Source: Escherichia phage Dru_SM5
Reading direction: 5' to 3' (one strand)
Length of the DNA: 44,061 bases
Sequence record: PP920550.1
Made by a program: the position numbers and the translations under genes. This document shows, one piece after another, positions 5,987 through 39,605 of this stretch (positions within the stretch are counted from its first letter, which is position 1; each line of letters begins with the position of its first letter). Under the pieces are notes generated by a model. The model was not told where the DNA came from. It saw only the letters and a list, made by a program, of their open reading frames with translations, and searched no databases.

Positions 5987-6052
5987 TTTGTTACCCTCAT
6001 TGGTTGGTATGCAACCAATATATTGCAACCAATCCACCAATGCAAGCGAATT

Positions 6053-16792: not shown

Positions 16793-17400
16793 CCACATTT
16801 AAATTATACGGCGTTTTAGGACGTCGATTCGGTAAAGTGCATAAGCTGGACTGCTTCACTCCGGGCGAGGGTATCACCGGCCTGTGCGTGAAGTTACCCG
16901 GCTTACAGGACTTTCTAATGTCGGCCCACCTGGACAATATGATGTTCAAGGTGCGCAAAGGCGACCACACGATGACCGGCTATGATGAGCTGGGCGAGTT
17001 CCACGGCAACCGCGTAGTTACCATCGCGCCGGTTATGACGGGCGCAAAAAGAGGGTTGGGACAATTGCTGGCGGGTGTCGCGATCGTAGTGGCGTCGTTC
17101 TATACGGGCGGACTTGCTACTGCCGCTTTCGGGGCTTCGGCTGCAACCGCTGCCGCTATCGGGACGGCGACGTTTTCGTTCGGGATGTCGATGGCGCTGG
17201 GTGGCGTTATGCAATTGCTGTCGCCACAACCGAAAGGATTGCAGACAAGGCAGGACGTGGATAACAAAGCGTCGTACGCGTTCGGCGGCCCGGTAAACAC
17301 GACCGCGCAAGGTACGGCGCTTGGTGTATTATGGGGCGAGCGTGAGATCGGCGGCGCTATTATTTCAGCCGGAATCGTAACCGAGGACTTGAACAAATGA
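16783..17400 (+). CDS. tail assembly protein I-like
   Basis: 205 aa at the gpI position, with a hydrophobic Gly/Ala-rich C-terminal half. Overlaps K and J. Confidence 0.65.
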   Translation: MAMTTFKLYGVLGRRFGKVHKLDCFTPGEGITGLCVKLPGLQDFLMSAHLDNMMFKVRKGDHTMTGYDELGEFHGNRVVTIAPVMTGAKRGLGQLLAGVAIVVASFYTGGLATAAFGASAATAAAIGTATFSFGMSMALGGVMQLLSPQPKGLQTRQDVDNKASYAFGGPVNTTAQGTALGVLWGEREIGGAIISAGIVTEDLNK

Positions 17401-20400
17401 CGATTATCTACGACGTCACGGGGCATAAAGGCGGCGGAGGCAAACAGCACACCCCGCAGGAAACGCCGGATAGCCTGCATTCCCTGGCTAAAATTCGCAT
17501 CTTGCTTGCGCTAGGGGAAGGGGAATTCGAAAGTATTACCAGCGACAGCGAATTACGGCAGCGTGTATATCTGGACGGCACTCCGATCCAGAACGCCGAC
17601 CTGTCGGAAAACTTCCCCGGCGCGCGCGTGGAGTTCCGCCCAGGCACACAGCACCAGGACGTGATCCACGGATTTTCAGCGGTGGAAAGTGAGCAATCCG
17701 TCGGTGTAAAACTGGAAAACGGCACGCCGTGGGTGCGCCAGATTAATGACACCAGTTTGGACGCCGTGCGCATTCGCATCGGCATTCCGGCCCTGTACAC
17801 TAACGAAGATAATGGCGACCTGGTGGGCGGGCGCATCGACTATAAGATAGTTGTGTATACGGATAACGCCGACCCGCGTGAGTTCAGATTCGCCGCCGTT
17901 GGTAAAACAATGTCGCTGTATGAGCGCGACCACCGCATCGAATTACCGCCGAACGTGAATACCGGCTGGCGCGTGGAGGTGCACCGCATAACGGCAGACT
18001 CCACATCGGCGAAAGTGGTTAATGATATCCGGGTGCAGTCCATCACTGAGATTATTGACGCCCGCCTGCGTTACCCGCTAACCGCGCTGTTGTTTGTGGA
18101 GTTCGACGCCAAAGCGTTCCAGAACATCCCGCGCGTGTCCATTAAGTGCAAAGGCCGTAAAGTTCTAATACCGAACAACTACGACCCGATTAATCATACC
18201 TATTCCGGGGACTGGGACGGCACGTTTAAACGCGCATGGACGGATAACCCTGCGTGGCACTGGTACGATATTTGTATTACTGAACGCTTCGGCCTCGGTC
18301 GGCGTATCAAACCGCAAATGTTAAACCGGTACGCGCTCTACCAGATTGCGCAGCGCTGCGATCAGTTGGTCAGCGACGGCAACGGTGGTCGAGAAATCCG
18401 CTTTAAGAATGATATGTACATCCAGTCGCAGACAGACGCCTGGACCGTGCTTAAGGATTTGGCTGCCATCTTCGCCGGAATGACCTGGTGGGGCAACCAG
18501 ATGTTGAATATCGTCAGTGACCAACCGGTCGCAGCAGTGTCGCACACGATCACCAACGCCTCGGTAATTGATGGTCGATTCGACTACGCATCGGGCAGCC
18601 AGAAAACTCGGTATTCAACTTTCGCGGTCGCATACGGCAACCCGAAGAACCACTATGAAGATGCCATCGCAACGGGGCAACGTGTAGAACTGGTACGCCG
18701 CCATAAGATTAACCGTCTTGATATTACGGCGATCGGCTGTACGCGTGAATCGGAAGCGCAACGCCGCGGGCACTGGGCGCTAATCTCCAACCAGCTTGAC
18801 CAGCAAGTTAGCTTTAAGGTTGGCATGGAAGGACTATTCTTTATTCCGGGTAGTGTAGTCGCGATCGCCGATACAAACATTTCTGGCGGCTTCGAGACAC
18901 GCGGCGGTCGCCTGTTGTCGGACCCTGGCACGCGTACCGTGCTTAACACGGACAGCGAAATCACGTTCCGCCCCGGTGATAAATTCCTGGTACGCACCGA
19001 TAGTGGTAATGTGGAGACTCGCGAGATCGCCAGCGTCAACGGCAACAAGGTTACGCTAAAAACCGCACTGGACGCAGACCCGATTCCTGATCAGCCGTTT
19101 TGCGTTGATGGTGACGATATCCAGTTGCAGAAGTTCCGCATCACCGACCTGGAATATGACGACTCTACCAGCACTTTTTCAGTGCGCGGGATCGAGTACA
19201 ACGATAGCAAATATGATGCCGTTGATAATGGCGCTCGCCTTGACCCAGGCATCTTTACGCAAGTTCCTGACGGCGTAATGAAGGGGCCGGAGTCCGTGAC
19301 CATCACCCCGTCGCAGATTTCATCGCAAGGCCAGCTAATCACCAACGTGGATATTGTATTCCCTCCGGTGAAGGATGCCGTGGTGTATGAAATCCAGTGG
19401 CGACGTACCAGCTTGCAGAATATGGAAATCCAGTGGGGAAACGACTGGGTGAACATCCCACGCACGGCATCGAATGGGGCGCACATCCCTAACGTGTTCT
19501 CCGGTAACTATCAGGCACGCGTCCGCGCAATTGGTATGGGCGAAATCTCGTCCCCGTGGGTATCATCCGCGATCACGCCGGTGGAAGGTCGTCTCGGTGG
19601 GCTTAACGCACCAATCATCACCAACGCTATTTCGGGCCTTCACCAGATCTTGTGGAAGTGGAACCACAACAACGCCGCTACTGATATCTCGTACACCGAG
19701 CTTGAAGTGCGCAAGACCGGTGAGACTGAATGGAAATTCCTTACCAACGTCCCATATCCGGGGGCGGAGTATGCGCAAACATCGCTGGAGTTCGGAATTT
19801 ACCAGCAGTTGCGCGCCCGTGTAGCGGATAAAATCGGCAACCGGTCGGACTGGTCGGCCCCGTTTGAAGGGCAGGTGAGTGACAAAGTTGACGAGTACAT
19901 GAAGGGGCTTGATGACGAGTTCTTGACTTCCGAGGATGGTAAACGCTTCCAGGAAGCAATCAACACGATCCCGCAGGGTATTTACGAGGCGATGCTCACC
20001 GACGCGCAGCAATTGTTCAACGCCCGCGCCGAGTACAAGGGTATTTATGCGGAAATCTCGGTAGCGTATAACGTGGCTGCGGACGCCCACAAGGCGGTCG
20101 CTCAACTGGAGACGTTGATCGGCACGCGACTTGATGACGCGGAAGCTGCGATCCACACGTTGCAGACCGCGCAGAGCACACAGGAACAAGCGTTCGCCCA
20201 GTACCAGCAAACTGTTGCCGCTAAGTTCGGGGAACAGGAAGCCGCCATCCAGCAGGTACAAACGGCAACCGCAGACGTGGCGGGAGCGCTGGCGGAATAT
20301 AAGACCCAGGTCGCTACACAGTTCGGTCAGCAGTCCGCCGCTATCGAGCAGAAGATGACGTCCTCGTTTAACCACTCTGGTGGTAGCGCCACGTATAGCC

Positions 20401-20816
20401 TTAAGGCTGGCGTGACATATAACGGGACTTATTATGATGCGGGTATGCAGCTTTCCGTTGTGACGTCAGGCAACGCGGTTAAATCGCGTATTGCGTTCAA
20501 GGCGGACCAGTTCTACATCATGCATCCGTCCAATGGGACGCTGTCGTCTGCGTTTATTGTGGACGGTGGCGCGGTGTATATCGACACGGCACGCATCAAG
20601 AACGCGTCCATCAACTTCGCGCAGATAACAGACACGCTGCAATCGAATAACTACGACGGCAGCACGCGCGGCTGGCGCTTAGGGAAAGATGGAACGTTTA
20701 TCAACCTGGGCACCGGTAGCGGCGGCGGGATGAAACAGACGAACACAAGAATCAGCGTGAAGGACGGAAACGGCGTTCTCCGCGTGCAGATTGGTGAGCT
20801 TACTGGTAGCTGGTAG
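17397..20816 (+). CDS. host specificity / central tail fiber protein J-like
   Basis: 1139 aa ORF at the gpJ position, the largest tail-tip gene. Followed by a terminator. Confidence 0.85.
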   Translation: MTIIYDVTGHKGGGGKQHTPQETPDSLHSLAKIRILLALGEGEFESITSDSELRQRVYLDGTPIQNADLSENFPGARVEFRPGTQHQDVIHGFSAVESEQSVGVKLENGTPWVRQINDTSLDAVRIRIGIPALYTNEDNGDLVGGRIDYKIVVYTDNADPREFRFAAVGKTMSLYERDHRIELPPNVNTGWRVEVHRITADSTSAKVVNDIRVQSITEIIDARLRYPLTALLFVEFDAKAFQNIPRVSIKCKGRKVLIPNNYDPINHTYSGDWDGTFKRAWTDNPAWHWYDICITERFGLGRRIKPQMLNRYALYQIAQRCDQLVSDGNGGREIRFKNDMYIQSQTDAWTVLKDLAAIFAGMTWWGNQMLNIVSDQPVAAVSHTITNASVIDGRFDYASGSQKTRYSTFAVAYGNPKNHYEDAIATGQRVELVRRHKINRLDITAIGCTRESEAQRRGHWALISNQLDQQVSFKVGMEGLFFIPGSVVAIADTNISGGFETRGGRLLSDPGTRTVLNTDSEITFRPGDKFLVRTDSGNVETREIASVNGNKVTLKTALDADPIPDQPFCVDGDDIQLQKFRITDLEYDDSTSTFSVRGIEYNDSKYDAVDNGARLDPGIFTQVPDGVMKGPESVTITPSQISSQGQLITNVDIVFPPVKDAVVYEIQWRRTSLQNMEIQWGNDWVNIPRTASNGAHIPNVFSGNYQARVRAIGMGEISSPWVSSAITPVEGRLGGLNAPIITNAISGLHQILWKWNHNNAATDISYTELEVRKTGETEWKFLTNVPYPGAEYAQTSLEFGIYQQLRARVADKIGNRSDWSAPFEGQVSDKVDEYMKGLDDEFLTSEDGKRFQEAINTIPQGIYEAMLTDAQQLFNARAEYKGIYAEISVAYNVAADAHKAVAQLETLIGTRLDDAEAAIHTLQTAQSTQEQAFAQYQQTVAAKFGEQEAAIQQVQTATADVAGALAEYKTQVATQFGQQSAAIEQKMTSSFNHSGGSATYSLKAGVTYNGTYYDAGMQLSVVTSGNAVKSRIAFKADQFYIMHPSNGTLSSAFIVDGGAVYIDTARIKNASINFAQITDTLQSNNYDGSTRGWRLGKDGTFINLGTGSGGGMKQTNTRISVKDGNGVLRVQIGELTGSW

Positions 20817-20852: not shown

Positions 20853-21155
20853 ATGGCATTCGGTATCGCAACGTGGGACGCGCAAGGACGCCCAAACAAC
20901 TACGGCATTAAACCGGTAAGCGTGATCGGAAGGATTCATCTTGCGGAAGGACAAAAATCAGGCGCATGGTCATTCCCTGTACCGGCGGGGATGAAGGTCG
21001 GATACGTGGTCGCACTGGATAAAGGCGCGGTCGGGCCAGGCCGCAGAATAACCGCCAGCGGGAACACTATCACGGTTTCCGCGGCAAGTGCGGTAGGTGG
21101 CGGGGTTTACTCCGCATCTGAATGTGACGTTATTGTTTTTGTGGAGCGAGCATAA
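20853..21155 (+). CDS. hypothetical protein (post-J, possible tail accessory)
   Basis: 100 aa ORF. Weak similarity by eye to the C-terminal half of the next ORF (WD..G and ISAAS/VSAAS motifs). Confidence 0.5.
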   Translation: MAFGIATWDAQGRPNNYGIKPVSVIGRIHLAEGQKSGAWSFPVPAGMKVGYVVALDKGAVGPGRRITASGNTITVSAASAVGGGVYSASECDVIVFVERA

Positions 21156-21829
21156 TGGCTAATTACGGCGCGTTGATTGACTTACCAAACGGCAACCCGT
21201 TTATCACGCCAGAATCGACGCCGTTTTGTCTATTCCGCCGTGTGGTTGTTGGGTCTTCGGCTAACGGCACTGCGCAGTCGGCGGCTGCCGATATTAATTT
21301 GGGCGGTGACTACCCCGCGATAGCGTTTGTGAAAACTACGCACACCGCCCGGCCGACCGTCGTAGGGTCTTCTCGCGTTGGTAATGTGGTGAAGGTGAGC
21401 GCCAGCAATCCATTCAGGCAGGGCTTCACGATGACGGCTTACATCTTTGCTATATTCCCACAGTCCCTTCCGCGGTGGGGCTTCGCTATTTGGGATAAGA
21501 CGGGGAAGCTAGTGCTTACTAATGAGAGTCGCGTACTAAGTGATTTAGTTACCGTCGGATCGCCAGGCGCTAACGGGGGGATTAACATTGACCAGACGCT
21601 AAACGGCAGCTACGCCGTCGCTCCGGGCATATTGGGGTCTACGCTGATCCGGTTTTTTGTGCAGGGCCAGCCGCAAGTAATATCGGTAACGGCGTACACG
21701 GGGGCCAGATTTGATGGGTCGCGAACGCGTATATCGGCAGCGTCGCCGGGGAACGCCACGGGGGATGTGGTGGGGTATACTAACAACGGCAACGCGATTA
21801 TGGCGATTAACACCGCCAATTATGATTGA
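21155..21829 (+). CDS. hypothetical protein (post-J, possible tail accessory)
   Basis: 224 aa ORF; start overlaps the upstream stop. Followed by a bidirectional terminator. Confidence 0.5.
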   Translation: MANYGALIDLPNGNPFITPESTPFCLFRRVVVGSSANGTAQSAAADINLGGDYPAIAFVKTTHTARPTVVGSSRVGNVVKVSASNPFRQGFTMTAYIFAIFPQSLPRWGFAIWDKTGKLVLTNESRVLSDLVTVGSPGANGGINIDQTLNGSYAVAPGILGSTLIRFFVQGQPQVISVTAYTGARFDGSRTRISAASPGNATGDVVGYTNNGNAIMAINTANYD

Positions 21830-21831
21830 AG

Positions 21832-21852
21832 AAAGCCCCGAAAGGGGCTTAT
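21832..21852. terminator. bidirectional terminator hairpin
   Basis: AGCCCC-gaaa-GGGGCT with flanking A/T runs, between convergent genes. Confidence 0.45.
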
Positions 21853-22067
21853 TTGCAGGTTGTGCTTTTGAAGTGGTCGACCGACACATACTGGAAGTTG
21901 AATGGGTATCCCGCCCGTAACATTTTATGACCGCTAACGTCTGCAACCCCAAACACAGGGACGGAATACTCCACGCCACTATTCATGTATGTCGCGTCGC
22001 AGACTTTAGTCGGCATGTTGGCACAACCCGACAAAAGAACCCCACAAATCATAATTAAAGTTTTCAT
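21849..22067 (-). CDS. small lipoprotein, candidate Llp/Cor-like superinfection exclusion protein
   Basis: ATG at 22067 follows an AGGAGA RBS. Signal peptide MKTLIMICGVLL with lipobox LSGC; about 55 aa mature, Cys-containing. Reverse-oriented next to the tail fiber gene. Confidence 0.5.
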   Translation of the reverse strand: MKTLIMICGVLLSGCANMPTKVCDATYMNSGVEYSVPVFGVADVSGHKMLRAGYPFNFQYVSVDHFKSTTCK

Positions 22068-22147
22068 GGTATCATCTCCTATATTTGGTCGAGTTTTAGT
22101 ATCGCACCGCTCGACCAGGATTGCAACCAATTTATGAGGATTCAGCT

Positions 22148-23482
22148 ATGGCAGCGGGTACACTATCCGTAACGAACAATAGCAAGGCGGTAGTAGGGGT
22201 CGGCACAACGTTTACCGCGTTTAAAGCTGGCGACTTCTTAACGCTGGTGGTAGGACAAGTCCCATACACCGTGGCAATCGCGTCCGTTGAAAGCGCAACC
22301 GCGCTCACGCTGGTGTTGCCGTTCGACGGCCCAACGGCAACCGGCCTTGCGTGGGATGGTGTTAAGCGCGATACCATGTCACTGGCAACGATGGGCGTTA
22401 CCGTACAGGCTCAAAAAGCATTGCGCTTGATGATTGCAGATGAAAACAACTGGCGTGCAATCTTCGGCGACGCTGAAGAAATCACGGTCACGCTGCCGAA
22501 CGGGCAGGTGATGCAGGGTATGTCGTGGGGCTATCTGTCGCAGTTGATGAAACAGATCGACCCGTCTCAATACGCTAAGGTAAGTAACAACCTCACCGAC
22601 CTCACCGACAAAACCGCGGCACGGCAGACTCTCAACGCAATCGGCGTCGGGGATTATGGCATCGGAGGCGGCGCACCTGGCGGAAGTTGGGACACAGCAG
22701 ATGATAGCACCCTGATCGCTACAAACACAGGGTCCCCACTAGGTGACTTCTCCGTAGCGGGTGTGCATGTTAAGTTTGCGCAAAACTATGCTGTACAGTT
22801 CGCGGCGCGTAAAAGCCGATTTTTCTGGCGAACTAAAGAGAATGGGGCGCTACAGAATTGGTGCGAAGCGGTGAAGCCCGGCGACTACGGACTGGGTATT
22901 GAAAGATCAACCCCACCGCCGAATACGCAGGCTTGCTTTTTCTCGCAGGCGATCGGAGGTCCGACTTGGGCACCTGCAAACGGCGCAGGATTTCAATCTT
23001 CCTACCTCCCCACGCGTGTCGCGCAGGTTATGGTCGGGGTGGGGCCAGTGCTCTACTATCGTTTTAACACCTCCGGCGACGCGCAAGTCTCCTCCACAAC
23101 GCAACCATGGTCGCGGGTGCAAGATGCTGGTACGTCTGATGCCCGTGTGAAGGATATTAAGGGCAATTTAAATGTGGAAGCGGCGCTGGATAACATCAAC
23201 CGCCTTGAGTTTAAGTTGTTCCGGTACACGTTTGACGAACCGGAGCGATCTACGCGACGCGGAATCATTGCACAACAAGCGGCAACGGTTGACCGGGAAT
23301 ATGTGCACGACCACGAAGTGCCGGGGATGATGACGTTGGACTTAAACCCGCTTGTTGCGGATTGCCTGGCGGCTATTAAAGCGTTAAGAGCGCGTGACGA
23401 GGCGAACAAGGCCGAGATTGCAGAACTGAAAGCTGCCGTAGCGGAGTTGAAAGCCGCGGTCGCGGCACTGACTAAAGCATAA
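22148..23482 (+). CDS. tail fiber protein with C-terminal intramolecular chaperone (peptidase S74-like) domain
   Basis: ATG at 22148 follows a TGAGGA RBS. C-terminal roughly 120 aa (DARVKDIKGNLNVEAALD...coiled-coil AEIAELKAAVAELKAAVAAL) resemble auto-cleaving fiber chaperone domains. N-terminus shared with the 14665 ORF. Confidence 0.65.
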   Translation: MAAGTLSVTNNSKAVVGVGTTFTAFKAGDFLTLVVGQVPYTVAIASVESATALTLVLPFDGPTATGLAWDGVKRDTMSLATMGVTVQAQKALRLMIADENNWRAIFGDAEEITVTLPNGQVMQGMSWGYLSQLMKQIDPSQYAKVSNNLTDLTDKTAARQTLNAIGVGDYGIGGGAPGGSWDTADDSTLIATNTGSPLGDFSVAGVHVKFAQNYAVQFAARKSRFFWRTKENGALQNWCEAVKPGDYGLGIERSTPPPNTQACFFSQAIGGPTWAPANGAGFQSSYLPTRVAQVMVGVGPVLYYRFNTSGDAQVSSTTQPWSRVQDAGTSDARVKDIKGNLNVEAALDNINRLEFKLFRYTFDEPERSTRRGIIAQQAATVDREYVHDHEVPGMMTLDLNPLVADCLAAIKALRARDEANKAEIAELKAAVAELKAAVAALTKA

Positions 23483-23488
23483 CGAGAA

Positions 23489-23511
23489 GGGGCCACACGG
23501 CCCCTTTTTTT
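23489..23511. terminator. bidirectional terminator
   Basis: GGGGCC-acac-GGCCCC hairpin followed by TTTTTTT, between convergent genes. Confidence 0.55.
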
Positions 23512-24727: not shown

Positions 24728-24757
24728 ACTATAGTGCAACCAACCTATTGGTTGCAA
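24728..24757 (-). promoter_or_regulatory. candidate promoter embedded in a 9-bp-arm inverted repeat
   Basis: On the minus strand: TTGCAA, 18 nt spacer, TATAGT. Spacer overlaps the inverted repeat TGCAACCAA-ccta-TTGGTTGCA (24735-24756). About 45 nt upstream of the 24682 start. Confidence 0.35.
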
Positions 24758-36806: not shown

Positions 36807-39071
36807 ATGAGCTTAATTAAATTCGCTGTAACACGACCCGCTAAAAAAGGCGAAAAAGCCAGGGCGGAAAACTTCCAGATGACTACCGAAGAGTTTTTCG
36901 AATTTATCAATGACGCGAAAGAAATCTCCTCGGTGCATATTAACAAAACGGAAGATAAAGCGGAGTATGCACGCCGCAAGCGTAAGGCCGATGGCATTGT
37001 GGCTTATACCAGTGACGGCTTACGTCGCAAGACCAGTGCGGTGGACCGCTCGATCCTGTTCTTCGATATCGACCGTACTGACACCCGCACCCTGCGCCGC
37101 TGCCGTAAGGCGTTCATCGACGCGGGACTGGAACATGTATTTCACACCACTACCGGCGACCGCCACCCGCTGAAAGGGGGCACGCGTTGCGCTCGTTTCC
37201 TGGTGCTCACCGATAAGCCTGTACCGGCTGAAGACCTGGGCCGCGTCCAGTATGCACTATTACACCAACTGGGTCTGTCAGATGTGGACTTCGACGATTG
37301 CACGAAAGACACAAACCGCCTGATGTACCTGCCACACCAGCAGTCTGTTATTAAGTGCCACTACGGCAAGCGTGCCCGCGTCCGTCGTCTGCTTCGCCTG
37401 GCTGATAAGCTGGGAATGGAAAAAGAGGAAGTACGACGCGAACTGACCCAGGGCGATGACGGCGTGGCGGACGGTATTCTGGATTGGTGCTTCCAGGCAG
37501 GATTCGAACCGCTGTCGTCCGGTCGTGGTTATGAAGTGCCATGCCCGAACGAACACCTGCACAGTGGTGAAGGGTCCACCGCTATCATGGTTAAGGATGG
37601 CGAGATCCGTTTCAAGTGTATGCACACCGGCAACGAGTGTTGCTCGGAACTGAACAGACACCAGCACCTGGCGCTACGTCTTATCGGGATCCCGGACCAC
37701 CTGAACGTCGAACCGCACAACATGTCACGTAAGCAAATCGCCGCCATCCTCCCAGGTCTGGACGACGAGGAAGTGGAATCGTGCTATGAACATATCGTTG
37801 ATGCGGTCGGAGACGGCGACGAGTACGGCGTGTGTACTGATGCAGACCTGGACAACGAGCCGGTCGCACTGTTCAGTAAGCACGACCCGATCATCGAAGG
37901 CCTGGTCAACTTCAAATCGACCTGGTATCTCGCCGGTGAGTCGAACATTGGCAAGTCGTTCTACGTGCTGGGCCAGATGGCGTCAGTATCTGCCGGTATT
38001 CCGTTCGGCGGTGCGAAGGTCGTCCAGTCTCATTGCTTCTATTTCGATGCGGAAGGTGGTGAGGCCCCCAACCAGCGTAAAGAAGCATTGCAGATTAAAT
38101 ACGAGCACGACCTGGACAAGCTGCACATTATAGACCTGCAGTCACGCGGCTGGGATATCACCAGCAAATCAGGCTTGCGCGAAGTTATCAGCTTTATCAA
38201 CCGCACCGCTAACGGCGAACCGGTTGGCCTGGTGGCGTTCGACTCACTCAACCAGACTGTTGCGTTGCGGTCCGCTGATGCTAAACCGTTCGACGAGAAC
38301 AACGCCAGCGATATGGGTGAAGTGGTCAAAGCGCTGAAGGCCATCGCGGAAAATACAGGTGGCAGTGCGGGCGTCATCCACCACCCGGCTAAAGGTGCAA
38401 ACGGCAGCAGAACCCCCCGAGGGTCCGGCGCGCTGCATGGTGCTGTCGATTCTGCGTTCTTCCTGGAACAGCCGGACGACAACCAGCCCGGACAATTGAA
38501 CCTGTATCATGAGAAGTCACGTAACGGCATCAAGCAAGCGCCGCGCGGCTTCGTCCTGCTCAAGTGCAAGGTGAAGGTGGATCTCCGCAAGTCAGAAGCG
38601 TTCGAGGCGCACCAGTCCACCAGCACCGGGCCAGACTTCGGCGACGTGGTTGCCGGATGGGACGTCAAGCCGATTGCCTCCACGCCACGCGACGAGACTC
38701 TCTACCTCGTACCGGTTGCCCTGGCACCGTTCGCTATTGAACAGGCGAAGGCCTCGGGCAAAGCAGCAGTTAAAGAAGAGAACACCGCCGGACCGCGCAA
38801 CGAAAAAGAGAAAGTGCTTTATGCGGCACTGGAAAAACTGATGGAAGATAACCCGGACCATACTGGATTCAGTAAATCGGCAATTGTCCGCCAGGCTGGG
38901 CTGGCAAAAGGTGGCACTTCGACGAAGGCAATCGACGATATGGTGGAGCGAGGAGTGATAGGTTTTTACACCGATCCGCACACTGGGGCCATCTATGGGT
39001 CGTCTAATTTGGTCATCAAATCGGATATCCCTATCACGCTTTCAGCGACCGATGACGACTTAAAAGATTAA
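36807..39071 (+). CDS. DNA primase/helicase (primase-polymerase-like N-terminus + P-loop ATPase)
   Basis: N-terminal FFDIDRTD (AEP/prim-pol-like DxD), a Cys/His zinc-binding segment, Walker A GESNIGKS and Walker B LVAFDSLNQ. 754 aa. Confidence 0.6.
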   Translation: MSLIKFAVTRPAKKGEKARAENFQMTTEEFFEFINDAKEISSVHINKTEDKAEYARRKRKADGIVAYTSDGLRRKTSAVDRSILFFDIDRTDTRTLRRCRKAFIDAGLEHVFHTTTGDRHPLKGGTRCARFLVLTDKPVPAEDLGRVQYALLHQLGLSDVDFDDCTKDTNRLMYLPHQQSVIKCHYGKRARVRRLLRLADKLGMEKEEVRRELTQGDDGVADGILDWCFQAGFEPLSSGRGYEVPCPNEHLHSGEGSTAIMVKDGEIRFKCMHTGNECCSELNRHQHLALRLIGIPDHLNVEPHNMSRKQIAAILPGLDDEEVESCYEHIVDAVGDGDEYGVCTDADLDNEPVALFSKHDPIIEGLVNFKSTWYLAGESNIGKSFYVLGQMASVSAGIPFGGAKVVQSHCFYFDAEGGEAPNQRKEALQIKYEHDLDKLHIIDLQSRGWDITSKSGLREVISFINRTANGEPVGLVAFDSLNQTVALRSADAKPFDENNASDMGEVVKALKAIAENTGGSAGVIHHPAKGANGSRTPRGSGALHGAVDSAFFLEQPDDNQPGQLNLYHEKSRNGIKQAPRGFVLLKCKVKVDLRKSEAFEAHQSTSTGPDFGDVVAGWDVKPIASTPRDETLYLVPVALAPFAIEQAKASGKAAVKEENTAGPRNEKEKVLYAALEKLMEDNPDHTGFSKSAIVRQAGLAKGGTSTKAIDDMVERGVIGFYTDPHTGAIYGSSNLVIKSDIPITLSATDDDLKD

Positions 39072-39182
39072 ATTCTGCGCGCATTGGTTGCCGATATGGG
39101 AATTCCCATATCGCTAAACGATTAATTTGTGCGCGTATTGGTTGCCATTTTGCGTGTTTTTATCTGGTCGTATTGGTTGCCG
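39066..39182 (+). repeat. direct repeats flanking a perfect 22-bp palindrome (origin- or operator-like)
   Basis: 27 bp direct repeats at 39066-39092 and 39120-39146 (GATTAAATTCTGCGCGCATTGGTTGCC and a near copy), a partial third at 39170-39182, and the perfect palindrome CGATATGGGAATTCCCATATCG at 39092-39113. Confidence 0.7.
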
Positions 39183-39206
39183 TGTAGTGTAAATATAATG
39201 AATAGT

Positions 39207-39393
39207 TATGCAGTTTTATTGCATAAAGTAAGCGGGACAGAAAGCGGGACAAACAAGAGGCGGGACAAAGCGGGACAGCACCCCCGTCCCGCCCCGGATG
39301 ACGCGGCCTGGCGAGGAGCGGGACAGGCGGGACAAACCCAAGTCTTTCAGACTAGACGGGGGTCCATGGCCCCCCTCGTCTGAGACTGAATAA
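39207..39393 (+). repeat. GGGACA-iteron + GC-hairpin element, copy B
   Basis: About 187 bp paralog of 11735-11923: TATGCAG..TGCATAAA, four CGGGACA iterons, two more, then a near-identical conserved hairpin block. A TATAAT box at 39195-39200 sits just upstream. Confidence 0.8.
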
Positions 39394-39548
39394 AATCCGG
39401 GGATTGCAAAATACACGGCAGCATGATGCGAAGGGCGGTCGTCGATGAACCAGGCAACCAATGCGGGTTGCATTATGCTGAGTGAAAAATGCAGTTTGCA
39501 GTTGCAGCAGATAGCGATCAACTTTTTCATGCGCGTGATTAATATTGG

Positions 39549-39577
39549 TTGCATTCAGCCTGGAGCCTTGATATATT
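39549..39577 (+). promoter_or_regulatory. candidate promoter for the 39606 operon
   Basis: TTGCAT, 17 nt spacer, TATATT, then RBS ATGAGGA and the ATG at 39606. The -35 hexamer lies inside an ATTGGTTGCAT motif. Confidence 0.4.
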
Positions 39578-39605
39578 GGTTGCACACCAACATGAGGACT
39601 GAACA

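Follow-up and report, generated by a model that had tools for sequence, protein, structure and literature searches.

A Cor-family exclusion lipoprotein gene beside the receptor-binding cassette of Escherichia phage Dru_SM5, a Dhillonvirus predicted to use FhuA

In the 44,061-nucleotide stretch of DNA from Escherichia phage Dru_SM5 analysed here (PP920550.1; hereafter the window), the small reverse-oriented gene that lies between the receptor-binding genes and the lateral tail fibre gene is best read as cor, encoding a Cor-family exclusion lipoprotein of a virulent Dhillonvirus with FhuA as its terminal receptor. We assign this reading a probability of roughly 85%. The gene itself is of an ordinary kind that has already been annotated and published, namely Cor in an FhuA-type Dhillonvirus: identical or near-identical genes carry the cor annotation in GenBank records of Dhillonviruses, and a 2026 paper covers the cassette to which it belongs (PMC13164509). 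What is mildly new is a cassette made up of a shared promoter and signal peptide, together with a set of GCAACCAAT boxes.

The cor coding sequence occupies 21849..22067 on the minus strand, running from an ATG at 22067 to a TAA stop whose last base is 21849, and its translation is MKTLIMICGVLLSGCANMPTKVCDATYMNSGVEYSVPVFGVADVSGHKMLRAGYPFNFQYVSVDHFKSTTCK, the 72-aa precursor of the Cor phage-exclusion lipoprotein. The first-pass annotation had described an opposite-strand 72-aa precursor with the lipobox LSGC and cysteine in its mature part, all of which translation of the window confirmed; of the span that it had given (21849-22147), the part up to 22067 is coding sequence and the remainder is intergenic. 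A Shine-Dalgarno sequence, GGAGA, is found at 22075..22079 (minus strand), 7 nt 5' of the ATG, with its GG-GA kept in seven Dhillonviruses. An alternative TTG start would give a 93-aa frame reaching up to 22130, which has no ribosome-binding site and is unannotated in most relatives. When compared with five Dhillonvirus orthologues, cor shows dN/dS values of 0.07-0.22, so we regard it as a real gene under purifying selection; dS for the same gene is 0.35-0.76, as against 0.02-0.13 for its neighbours. Two plus-strand open reading frames (21927-22058 and 21985-22137) were judged spurious because they overlap cor in antisense. SM_S22 has two small hypothetical genes annotated antisense to cor at comparable positions.

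That this protein belongs to the Cor family is close to certain. It scores 60.1 bits against the NCBIfam equivalog model NF047972, 'phage exclusion lipoprotein Cor' (curated cut-off 31), with residues 2-71 on model positions 2-76 of 78, and it matches PHROG 1119, 'Cor superinfection exclusion protein', at E=1.9e-27 over residues 1-72; a Pfam scan of the 72-aa protein returned no family. Searching a phage collection with Cor by tblastn identified 244 records. The annotated Cor of phage Zumzum is 100% identical, and the corresponding product in about 70 other records, nearly all of them Dhillonviruses, is 79-94% identical (82% in JLBYU60), with many annotated as 'super-infection exclusion protein'. 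Identity falls to 45-55% for the Cor proteins of Drexlerviridae, with T1 Cor at 49%, and to 40-44% for classical Cor proteins, those of phi80 and of lambdoid phages of the HK75/HK544 type (40% for phi80, 42-44% for ES18 and HK75). A profile search of a metagenomic protein collection added 332 homologues, many of them named 'phage exclusion lipoprotein Cor' and belonging to enterobacterial prophages; this number comes from the alignment-based repeat of the search, the single-sequence version with a word index having given six close relatives.

The Dru_SM5 protein has the lipobox cysteine, the cysteine pair and the AGYPF motif in common with the Cor system of phi80, N15, HK022, mEp167 and T1, and the reversed orientation of its gene is also that of cor in T1 and ES18. 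It is a short form of 72 aa, like that of T1, without the EKQ(K/E)P insertion that follows the lipobox in lambdoid Cor. The two systems also differ in their carriers, a virulent Dhillonvirus here and a prophage for classical Cor, and in that cor of Dru_SM5 and the lateral fibre gene form a directly divergent pair, unlike in the classical system.

The first 14 residues of the precursor (MKTLIMICGVLLSG; 22026..22067, minus strand) read as a signal peptide, and the lipobox L12-S13-G14-C15 follows at 22023-22034 on the same strand. Checked by eye against the logic of PROSITE PS51257, the N-terminus has K2 in its n-region, an uncharged h-region, the lipobox and an alanine at +2; it is accordingly read as a canonical type II (lipoprotein) signal peptide, and lipidation is predicted. 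The alignments and an AF2 model delimit a mature lipoprotein of 58 aa, C15-K72 (21852..22025, minus strand), which holds two more cysteines, C23 and C71, and the motif R-A-G-Y-P-F at residues 51-56. Across an alignment of 119 Cor homologues, C15, C23 and G53 are invariant, and A52, Y54, P55, F56, V61, F66 and C71 are at least 90% conserved. The AF2 model built from this 119-sequence alignment has a pLDDT of about 91 over residues 21-70 and contains four beta strands.

A protein that is small, carries a lipobox and adjoins a fibre gene could also be some other outer-membrane lipoprotein, such as an o-spanin or an accessory of the lateral fibre, or the frame could be spurious, readings that we consider barely credible. 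Searches of PHROGs (E<=0.01) and NCBIfam (E<=0.1) matched no spanin family, the fibre has its own intramolecular chaperone of the Peptidase_S74 type, and it is the receptor module, not the fibre, with which Cor co-varies. The purifying selection and the 332 homologues speak against a spurious frame.

The Cor reading is extended by a distant resemblance to the T5 lipoprotein Llp. A phmmer search of the PDB sequences with the single Cor sequence returned only Llp (8a60_B), at E=0.28, and an HMM built from a Cor-only alignment (A2) ranked Llp first at E=0.014, a value partly carried by the signal peptide. The A2 search replaced one made with an earlier alignment (A1), which was discarded as circular because A1 included T5 Llp. 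Aligned directly by hhalign, the Cor-only profile and T5 Llp gave a probability of 89.5% over 73 columns with 29% identity. In a Foldseek comparison of the Cor model with the PDB, Llp in its FhuA complex (8a60_B) was the best full-length superposition, with TM 0.53/0.61 (TMq/TMt), rmsd 3.0 A, 59 columns, 25% identity and E=0.1. No PDB match had E <0.001 in that search, and the other matches, of comparable E-value to Llp, were Tudor-like small barrels with an rmsd of about 6.7 A. Among the neighbours in BFVD, those following the Dhillonvirus orthologue are lipoproteins and the 'receptor-blocking protein' of Yersinia phage phiR2-01; one of the lipoproteins is from slur09, a phage with a genomic match to T5 Llp. 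Most of the other neighbours come from phages that we take to be T5-like.

Two features of Llp can be placed on Cor by the alignment. The Llp cysteines Cys11 and Cys58 (mature numbering) align with C23 and C71 of Cor, and since the former pair form an intramolecular disulphide that constrains the termini (PMC9586334), a C23-C71 disulphide is predicted for Cor by analogy. The stretch Y54-V61 of Cor (YPFNFQYV), which begins within the A-G-Y-P-F motif (A52-F56), aligns with Llp Ile39-Trp46, the segment that sits in the switch-helix site of FhuA (PMC9586334). Published work also sees Cor and Llp as one structural family (10.64898/2026.03.26.714494; PMC9586334; PMC13164509). T5 Llp (PDB 8A60 chain B, 7QJF) is, like the protein described here, a small outer-membrane lipoprotein, it targets FhuA, and profile and fold comparisons link it to Cor, although the identity is only 25-30% or so and sequence searches are marginal. 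The modelled Cor protein appears to share the solved Llp fold.

The initial proposal of an Llp/Cor-type superinfection-exclusion lipoprotein was therefore right at the level of the family, as judged from NF047972, PHROG 1119, the identity with Zumzum, the synteny of the cassette and the profile and fold link to Llp. Of the comparisons that it had suggested, the one with Cor came out in its favour by the matches to the Cor models, and the one with T5 Llp gave a link by profile and fold (hhalign 89.5%, TM 0.53/0.61) with marginal sequence searches. Its statement that T5-like and T1-like phages have exactly this arrangement applies to T1 and ES18, in which cor is reversed and convergent with the cassette, and not to T5. 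There llp and the receptor-binding gene oad point away from each other, the Llp-type arrangement being a divergent pair with overlapping promoters, whereas cor of Dru_SM5 is convergent with its receptor cassette.

The window belongs to a Dhillonvirus, its central 24 kb having about 93.5% nucleotide identity to JLBYU60 over 94% of the length. Reading along the plus strand, a gpJ-like central tail tip protein of 1139 aa (17397..20816; Pfam FNIII-A_GpJ and Phage_Tail_Tip) is followed by the two genes of the receptor-binding cassette, of 100 aa (20853-21155; PHROG 557) and 224 aa (21155-21829; PHROG 425). Beyond cor lies the lateral tail fibre gene of 444 aa (22148..23482, ATG at 22148; PHROG 1980, with a C-terminal Peptidase_S74 chaperone domain). 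The order J, about 100 aa, about 220 aa and cor is also found in phi80, T1, ES18, HK75, aalborv, BrunoManser and Erwinia phage Midgardsormr38, with the fibre gene usually next in relatives; cor is reversed, as in Dru_SM5, in T1, ES18 and Drexlerviridae. The 100-aa and 224-aa proteins are 98-99% identical to their JLBYU60 counterparts and 52-70% identical to phi80 gp22/gp23, T1 ST32/ST31 and the counterparts in HK75.

These near-identical receptor proteins lead us to infer that FhuA is the receptor of Dru_SM5. JLBYU60, like JLBYU37, was recovered as an FhuA-dependent phage that requires FhuA loop 8, the dependence of JLBYU60 on this loop being complete, and the Dhillonviruses bob and Envy are reported to be FhuA-dependent as well (PMC10373560). 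In the BASEL study it was proposed that the locus downstream of gpJ encodes a receptor-binding protein and its cognate exclusion protein, the alleles of this locus matching receptor specificity in Drexlerviridae and Dhillonvirus, and that the lateral tail fibre recognises O-antigen (PMC8594841). The 2026 paper reports on ten BASEL phages of Drexlerviridae and Dhillonvirus that carry the three-gene cor cassette, all of them FhuA users, and presents an AF3 model of Cor on the periplasmic side of FhuA (PMC13164509). The predicted functional partner of cor is the receptor-binding cassette, which follows gpJ and flanks cor on the side away from the lateral fibre. In placing cor beside the fibre gene, the first-pass annotation had the position right (divergent, with an 80-bp gap); the fibre does not hold up as its partner, as the mature part of Cor co-varies with the receptor cassette and the middle of the lateral fibre gene varies independently of cor.

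A lipoprotein of the Cor/Llp fold might instead block a transporter other than FhuA, such as BtuB or another TonB-dependent one. Cor-like proteins occur in Markadamsvirinae and in one species of Tempevirinae that are reported as BtuB users (PMC13164509), the BFVD neighbours include the phiR2-01 'receptor-blocking protein' mentioned above, and by dS cor is far more diverged than its neighbours (0.35-0.76 against 0.02-0.13). We nevertheless consider a target other than FhuA very unlikely. JLBYU60, which depends on FhuA, has a receptor cassette 98-99% identical to this one and a Cor that is 82% identical; within the BASEL set the full three-gene cassette always goes with FhuA use (PMC13164509); and the Dru_SM5 protein passes the Cor equivalog model NF047972.

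With FhuA as the target, jamming of the receptor in the manner of T5 Llp is the likely mechanism by analogy. A sigma-70-type promoter of its own, within the 80-bp intergenic region, would drive cor, and the 72-aa precursor would be exported by Sec. The canonical lipobox suggests a lipid on Cys15 and cleavage by signal peptidase II, and the alanine at +2 suggests Lol-dependent sorting to the outer membrane under the E. coli '+2 rule'. There the 58-aa beta-domain, stapled by C23-C71, may bind the periplasmic face and plug of FhuA, as homology with T5 Llp suggests, and the extracellular loops EL7 and EL8 would be forced inward, so that neither the phage's own receptor-binding protein nor those of other FhuA phages could dock. 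Against this reading stands a 2018 report by Arguijo-Hernandez, cited in PMC13164509, that Cor interacts with other outer-membrane proteins. For T5 Llp, the inward folding of FhuA loops has been shown crystallographically, loop 8 being one of the two that move (PMC9586334), and the JLBYU60-type dependence on loop 8 fits the proposed mechanism because Llp folds this loop inward. Cor proteins inactivate FhuA functions according to work cited in 10.64898/2026.03.26.714494, which also states that the molecular mechanism of Cor itself is still unsettled. The literature that we searched contained no experiments on the Cor of Dru_SM5 or of any Dhillonvirus.

For a lytic phage, the proposed benefit would be twofold: infected cells would be safe from superinfection, and progeny would not be wasted on FhuA in cell debris. 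It is conceivable, though improbable in our estimate, that the blockade was selected for the second of these, lytic conversion, and not for the exclusion of competitors. The genus of Dru_SM5 consists of virulent siphoviruses, the mechanism is stated also to keep progeny from adsorbing to the remnants of lysed cells (PMC13164509), and T5 Llp is named 'lytic conversion lipoprotein' (PMC9586334). Lytic conversion is, however, compatible with superinfection exclusion, and the sequence does not discriminate between them; they are not mutually exclusive because the same binding event yields both.

Other members of the genus carry a different allele of the receptor locus. Oekolampad, which has been found experimentally to use LptD (PMC12685063), shares with StarDew, WFI and slur05 the 5' end of the fibre gene, the 80-bp intergenic region and the signal peptide MKTLIMICAVLLSGCA of Dru_SM5. 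After Cys-Ala, these four phages encode an unrelated mature lipoprotein of 57 aa, followed by a 321-aa protein. In Oekolampad the 321-aa gene sits where the LptD-binding receptor-binding protein of about 309 residues would be encoded (PMC12685063), and the annotation of its HK578 equivalent notes a similarity to rtp44, a receptor-binding candidate. What follows the shared promoter and signal peptide in the LptD-type Dhillonviruses is thus a lipoprotein unrelated to Cor, and aligning Cor with the slur05 lipoprotein by hhalign paired only 25 columns, those of the signal peptide, the mature parts being unrelated. The Rtp45-type lipoprotein (Rtp; HK578 gp24, in a record citing the Rtp lipoprotein; PDB 9RPS) occupies the identical slot in Dhillonvirus, with LptD as its target instead of FhuA (PMC12685063) and a mature domain unrelated to Cor. 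Its gene is co-oriented with its receptor-binding gene.

Between Dru_SM5 and slur05, DNA homology ends at about 20655, within the last 55 or so codons of gpJ, and resumes at 22020, the codon after the lipobox cysteine. By these breaks, the mature Cor domain travels with the receptor module and independently of the lateral fibre, which corrects the earlier stress on the fibre gene, and the last ~55 codons of gpJ are, as judged from the comparison, part of the exchangeable receptor module. That receptor loci are exchanged horizontally has been proposed in print (PMC8594841), and the exchange seen here fits that idea.

The 80-bp intergenic region between cor and the divergent tail-fibre gene is 96% identical across seven genomes. 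The early operon that runs leftward beyond the fibre gene is cut off from cor by a strong hairpin terminator (23484-23509), which lies between this operon and the fibre gene, and cor therefore most likely has its own promoter. By a relaxed hexamer scan we identified a weak candidate, a putative sigma-70 promoter at 22098..22126 on the minus strand with the -35 TTGCAA (22121-22126), a 17-nt spacer and the extended -10 TGcGATACT (22098-22106), which matches 8/12 consensus positions plus TGn; its TTGCA, TG and ATACT are invariant in the seven genomes. A strict promoter scan yielded no cor promoter, returning a minus-strand match inside the cor coding sequence and a plus-strand 9/12 match at 22028-22055 that could be a promoter of the fibre gene.

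Two inverted repeats frame the gene. The first, GGTCGAG-N16-CTCGACC, was read from the sequence at 22087..22116 and flanks the putative -10; relatives carry GGTTGAG/CTCAACC in its place, both arms having changed. As an RNA hairpin it was set aside for its unconvincing folding z-score (-1.1 to -2.2). The second, the hairpin AAGCCCC-GAAA-GGGGCTT at 21833..21850, lies between the convergent 224-aa gene and cor, overlapping the cor stop codon, and has a fold energy of -12.1 to -14.2 kcal/mol with z of -2.8 to -3.9. It is probably a bidirectional terminator, and a terminator is annotated in T1 at the corresponding site.

The 80-bp region between cor and the fibre gene also carries TTGCAACCAAT at 22121-22131, whose core, the GCAACCAAT box (22123..22131, plus strand), overlaps the putative cor -35 and lies 17 nt upstream of the fibre ATG. 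The TTGCAA within TTGCAACCAAT, a palindrome, is at the same time the -35 hexamer of that putative promoter. Reading TTGCAACCAAT as part of a plus-strand fibre promoter was rejected because the best -10, AGCTAT, which matches at 2/6 positions and overlaps the fibre start codon, has no A at the obligatory position 2 of the hexamer. The motif had been noted in a divergent control region on first reading of the DNA. It is indeed present there, and it is not specific to this locus, as the window holds 15 exact copies of GCAACCAAT genome-wide against 0.49 expected (at most 3 in 100 shuffles) and 20 occurrences of its 8-mer.

These copies are mostly intergenic or close to promoters, and many come in pairs spaced by 14-17 or 31-35 bp. 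Their placement relative to promoter-like hexamers varies: two fall in the spacer (36278, 33388), two directly follow or include the -35 (24757, 42637), and the pair at 24736/24755 forms a perfect palindrome. Their positions are conserved in JLBYU60 and slur05, the position of the box is kept in the Dhillonvirus loci, and T1 showed no GCAACCAAT enrichment. A literature search for the GCAACCAA motif returned unrelated primer sequences only. Such a distribution resembles that of a phage regulator's operator more than that of a fixed promoter element.

Taken together, the exclusion slot of Dhillonvirus may be a plug-and-play cassette, a proposal that we put forward at slightly less than even odds. 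Its fixed part would be a conserved promoter with an overlapping operator-like GCAACCAAT box, the 5'UTR and the signal peptide (MKTLIMIC-VLLSGCA), behind which unrelated mature blockers (Cor for FhuA, Rtp45-like for LptD) would be swapped along with the matching receptor-binding genes, with breakpoints exactly at the lipobox and in the last ~55 codons of gpJ. Under the same proposal cor would be tied to a phage-wide GCAACCAAT regulon.

From the presence of cor and of the two genes downstream of gpJ, the use of FhuA is predictable for Dru_SM5. Cells infected by this phage would then be expected to be refractory to T1-, T5- and phi80-type phages, which is relevant to the design of phage cocktails. 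The shared promoter and signal peptide and the GCAACCAAT box offer leads on the swapping of receptor modules and on the control of early genes in Dhillonvirus.

Among Dhillonviruses of the LptD type, the position of cor (minus strand, 21849-22067) is occupied by an unrelated 73-aa lipoprotein, as seen in the loci compared for slur05 (L012), Oekolampad (L018), StarDew (L020), WFI (L022) and HK578 (L021). The two genes have in common the upstream 80 bp and the signal peptide MKTLIMICAVLLSGCA (22020-22147 in the window), except in HK578, where the signal peptide differs past MKTLI. In window coordinates, the left edge of the exchanged module lies near 20655, where gpJ ends, and its right edge at 22020, in the codon that follows the lipobox Cys. 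Public records are inconsistent in their annotation of cor: SM_S22 (L015, 1510-1746) has no cor CDS and carries two small antisense ORFs instead, the annotated Cor of Zumzum (L017, 3-299) is 5'-extended, and the gene is labelled 'hypothetical' in GeorgBuechner, Opt212 and KarlBarth.

In the intergenic region upstream of cor, the putative -10 is bracketed by an inverted repeat, GGTCGAG-N16-CTCGACC (22087-22116), whose 3' arm is similar to a degenerate GCAACCAA box (CGACCAAAT). Most relatives have GGTTGAG and CTCAACC at these positions, so the two arms of the window's repeat have been altered together. GCAACCAAT occurs in 15 exact copies in the window (0.49 expected) and the 8-mer GCAACCAA in 20, with box copies at 6011, 6025, 22123, 24736/24755, 26646, 26663, 29802, 33372, 33388, 36278, 39091, 39145, 39180, 39454, 39552, 39583, 40130 and 42637. 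Most are intergenic and promoter-proximal, pairs spaced by 14-17 or 31-35 bp are frequent, and one pair (24736/24755) forms the palindrome GCAACCAAcctaTTGGTTGC. Because the copies are not placed uniformly with respect to the -35 and -10 hexamers, we suggest that the box is the operator of a phage regulator. Box positions are kept in JLBYU60 and slur05; T1, also checked, showed no box enrichment.

Downstream of the 754-aa gene at 36807-39071, some 530 bp of noncoding sequence (39072-39605) include about six direct GCGGGACA repeats (39230-39335), which are flanked by grouped GCAACCAAT boxes and by AT-rich sequence. This noncoding region looks like a candidate origin of replication or other cis-acting region.

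The lateral tail fibre gene divergent from cor (22148-23482) encodes 444 aa, compared to 561 aa in JLBYU60. Given that the N-terminal 139 aa and C-terminal 313 aa align to the JLBYU60 fibre with 99% and 92% identity, respectively, the window phage lacks roughly 110 aa from the interior of the protein. When cor is compared among the Cor-type Dhillonviruses, it is a local divergence hot spot, with dS of 0.35-0.76 and nucleotide identity of 81-90%, whereas the adjoining receptor genes (20853-21829) have dS of only 0.02-0.13 and identity of 96-99%. Amino-acid changes in Cor are concentrated in mature residues 16-44, with residues 45-72 nearly invariant. Together, the high dS relative to the neighbouring genes and this clustering of changes suggest that these phages carry old cor alleles shuffled via recombination.
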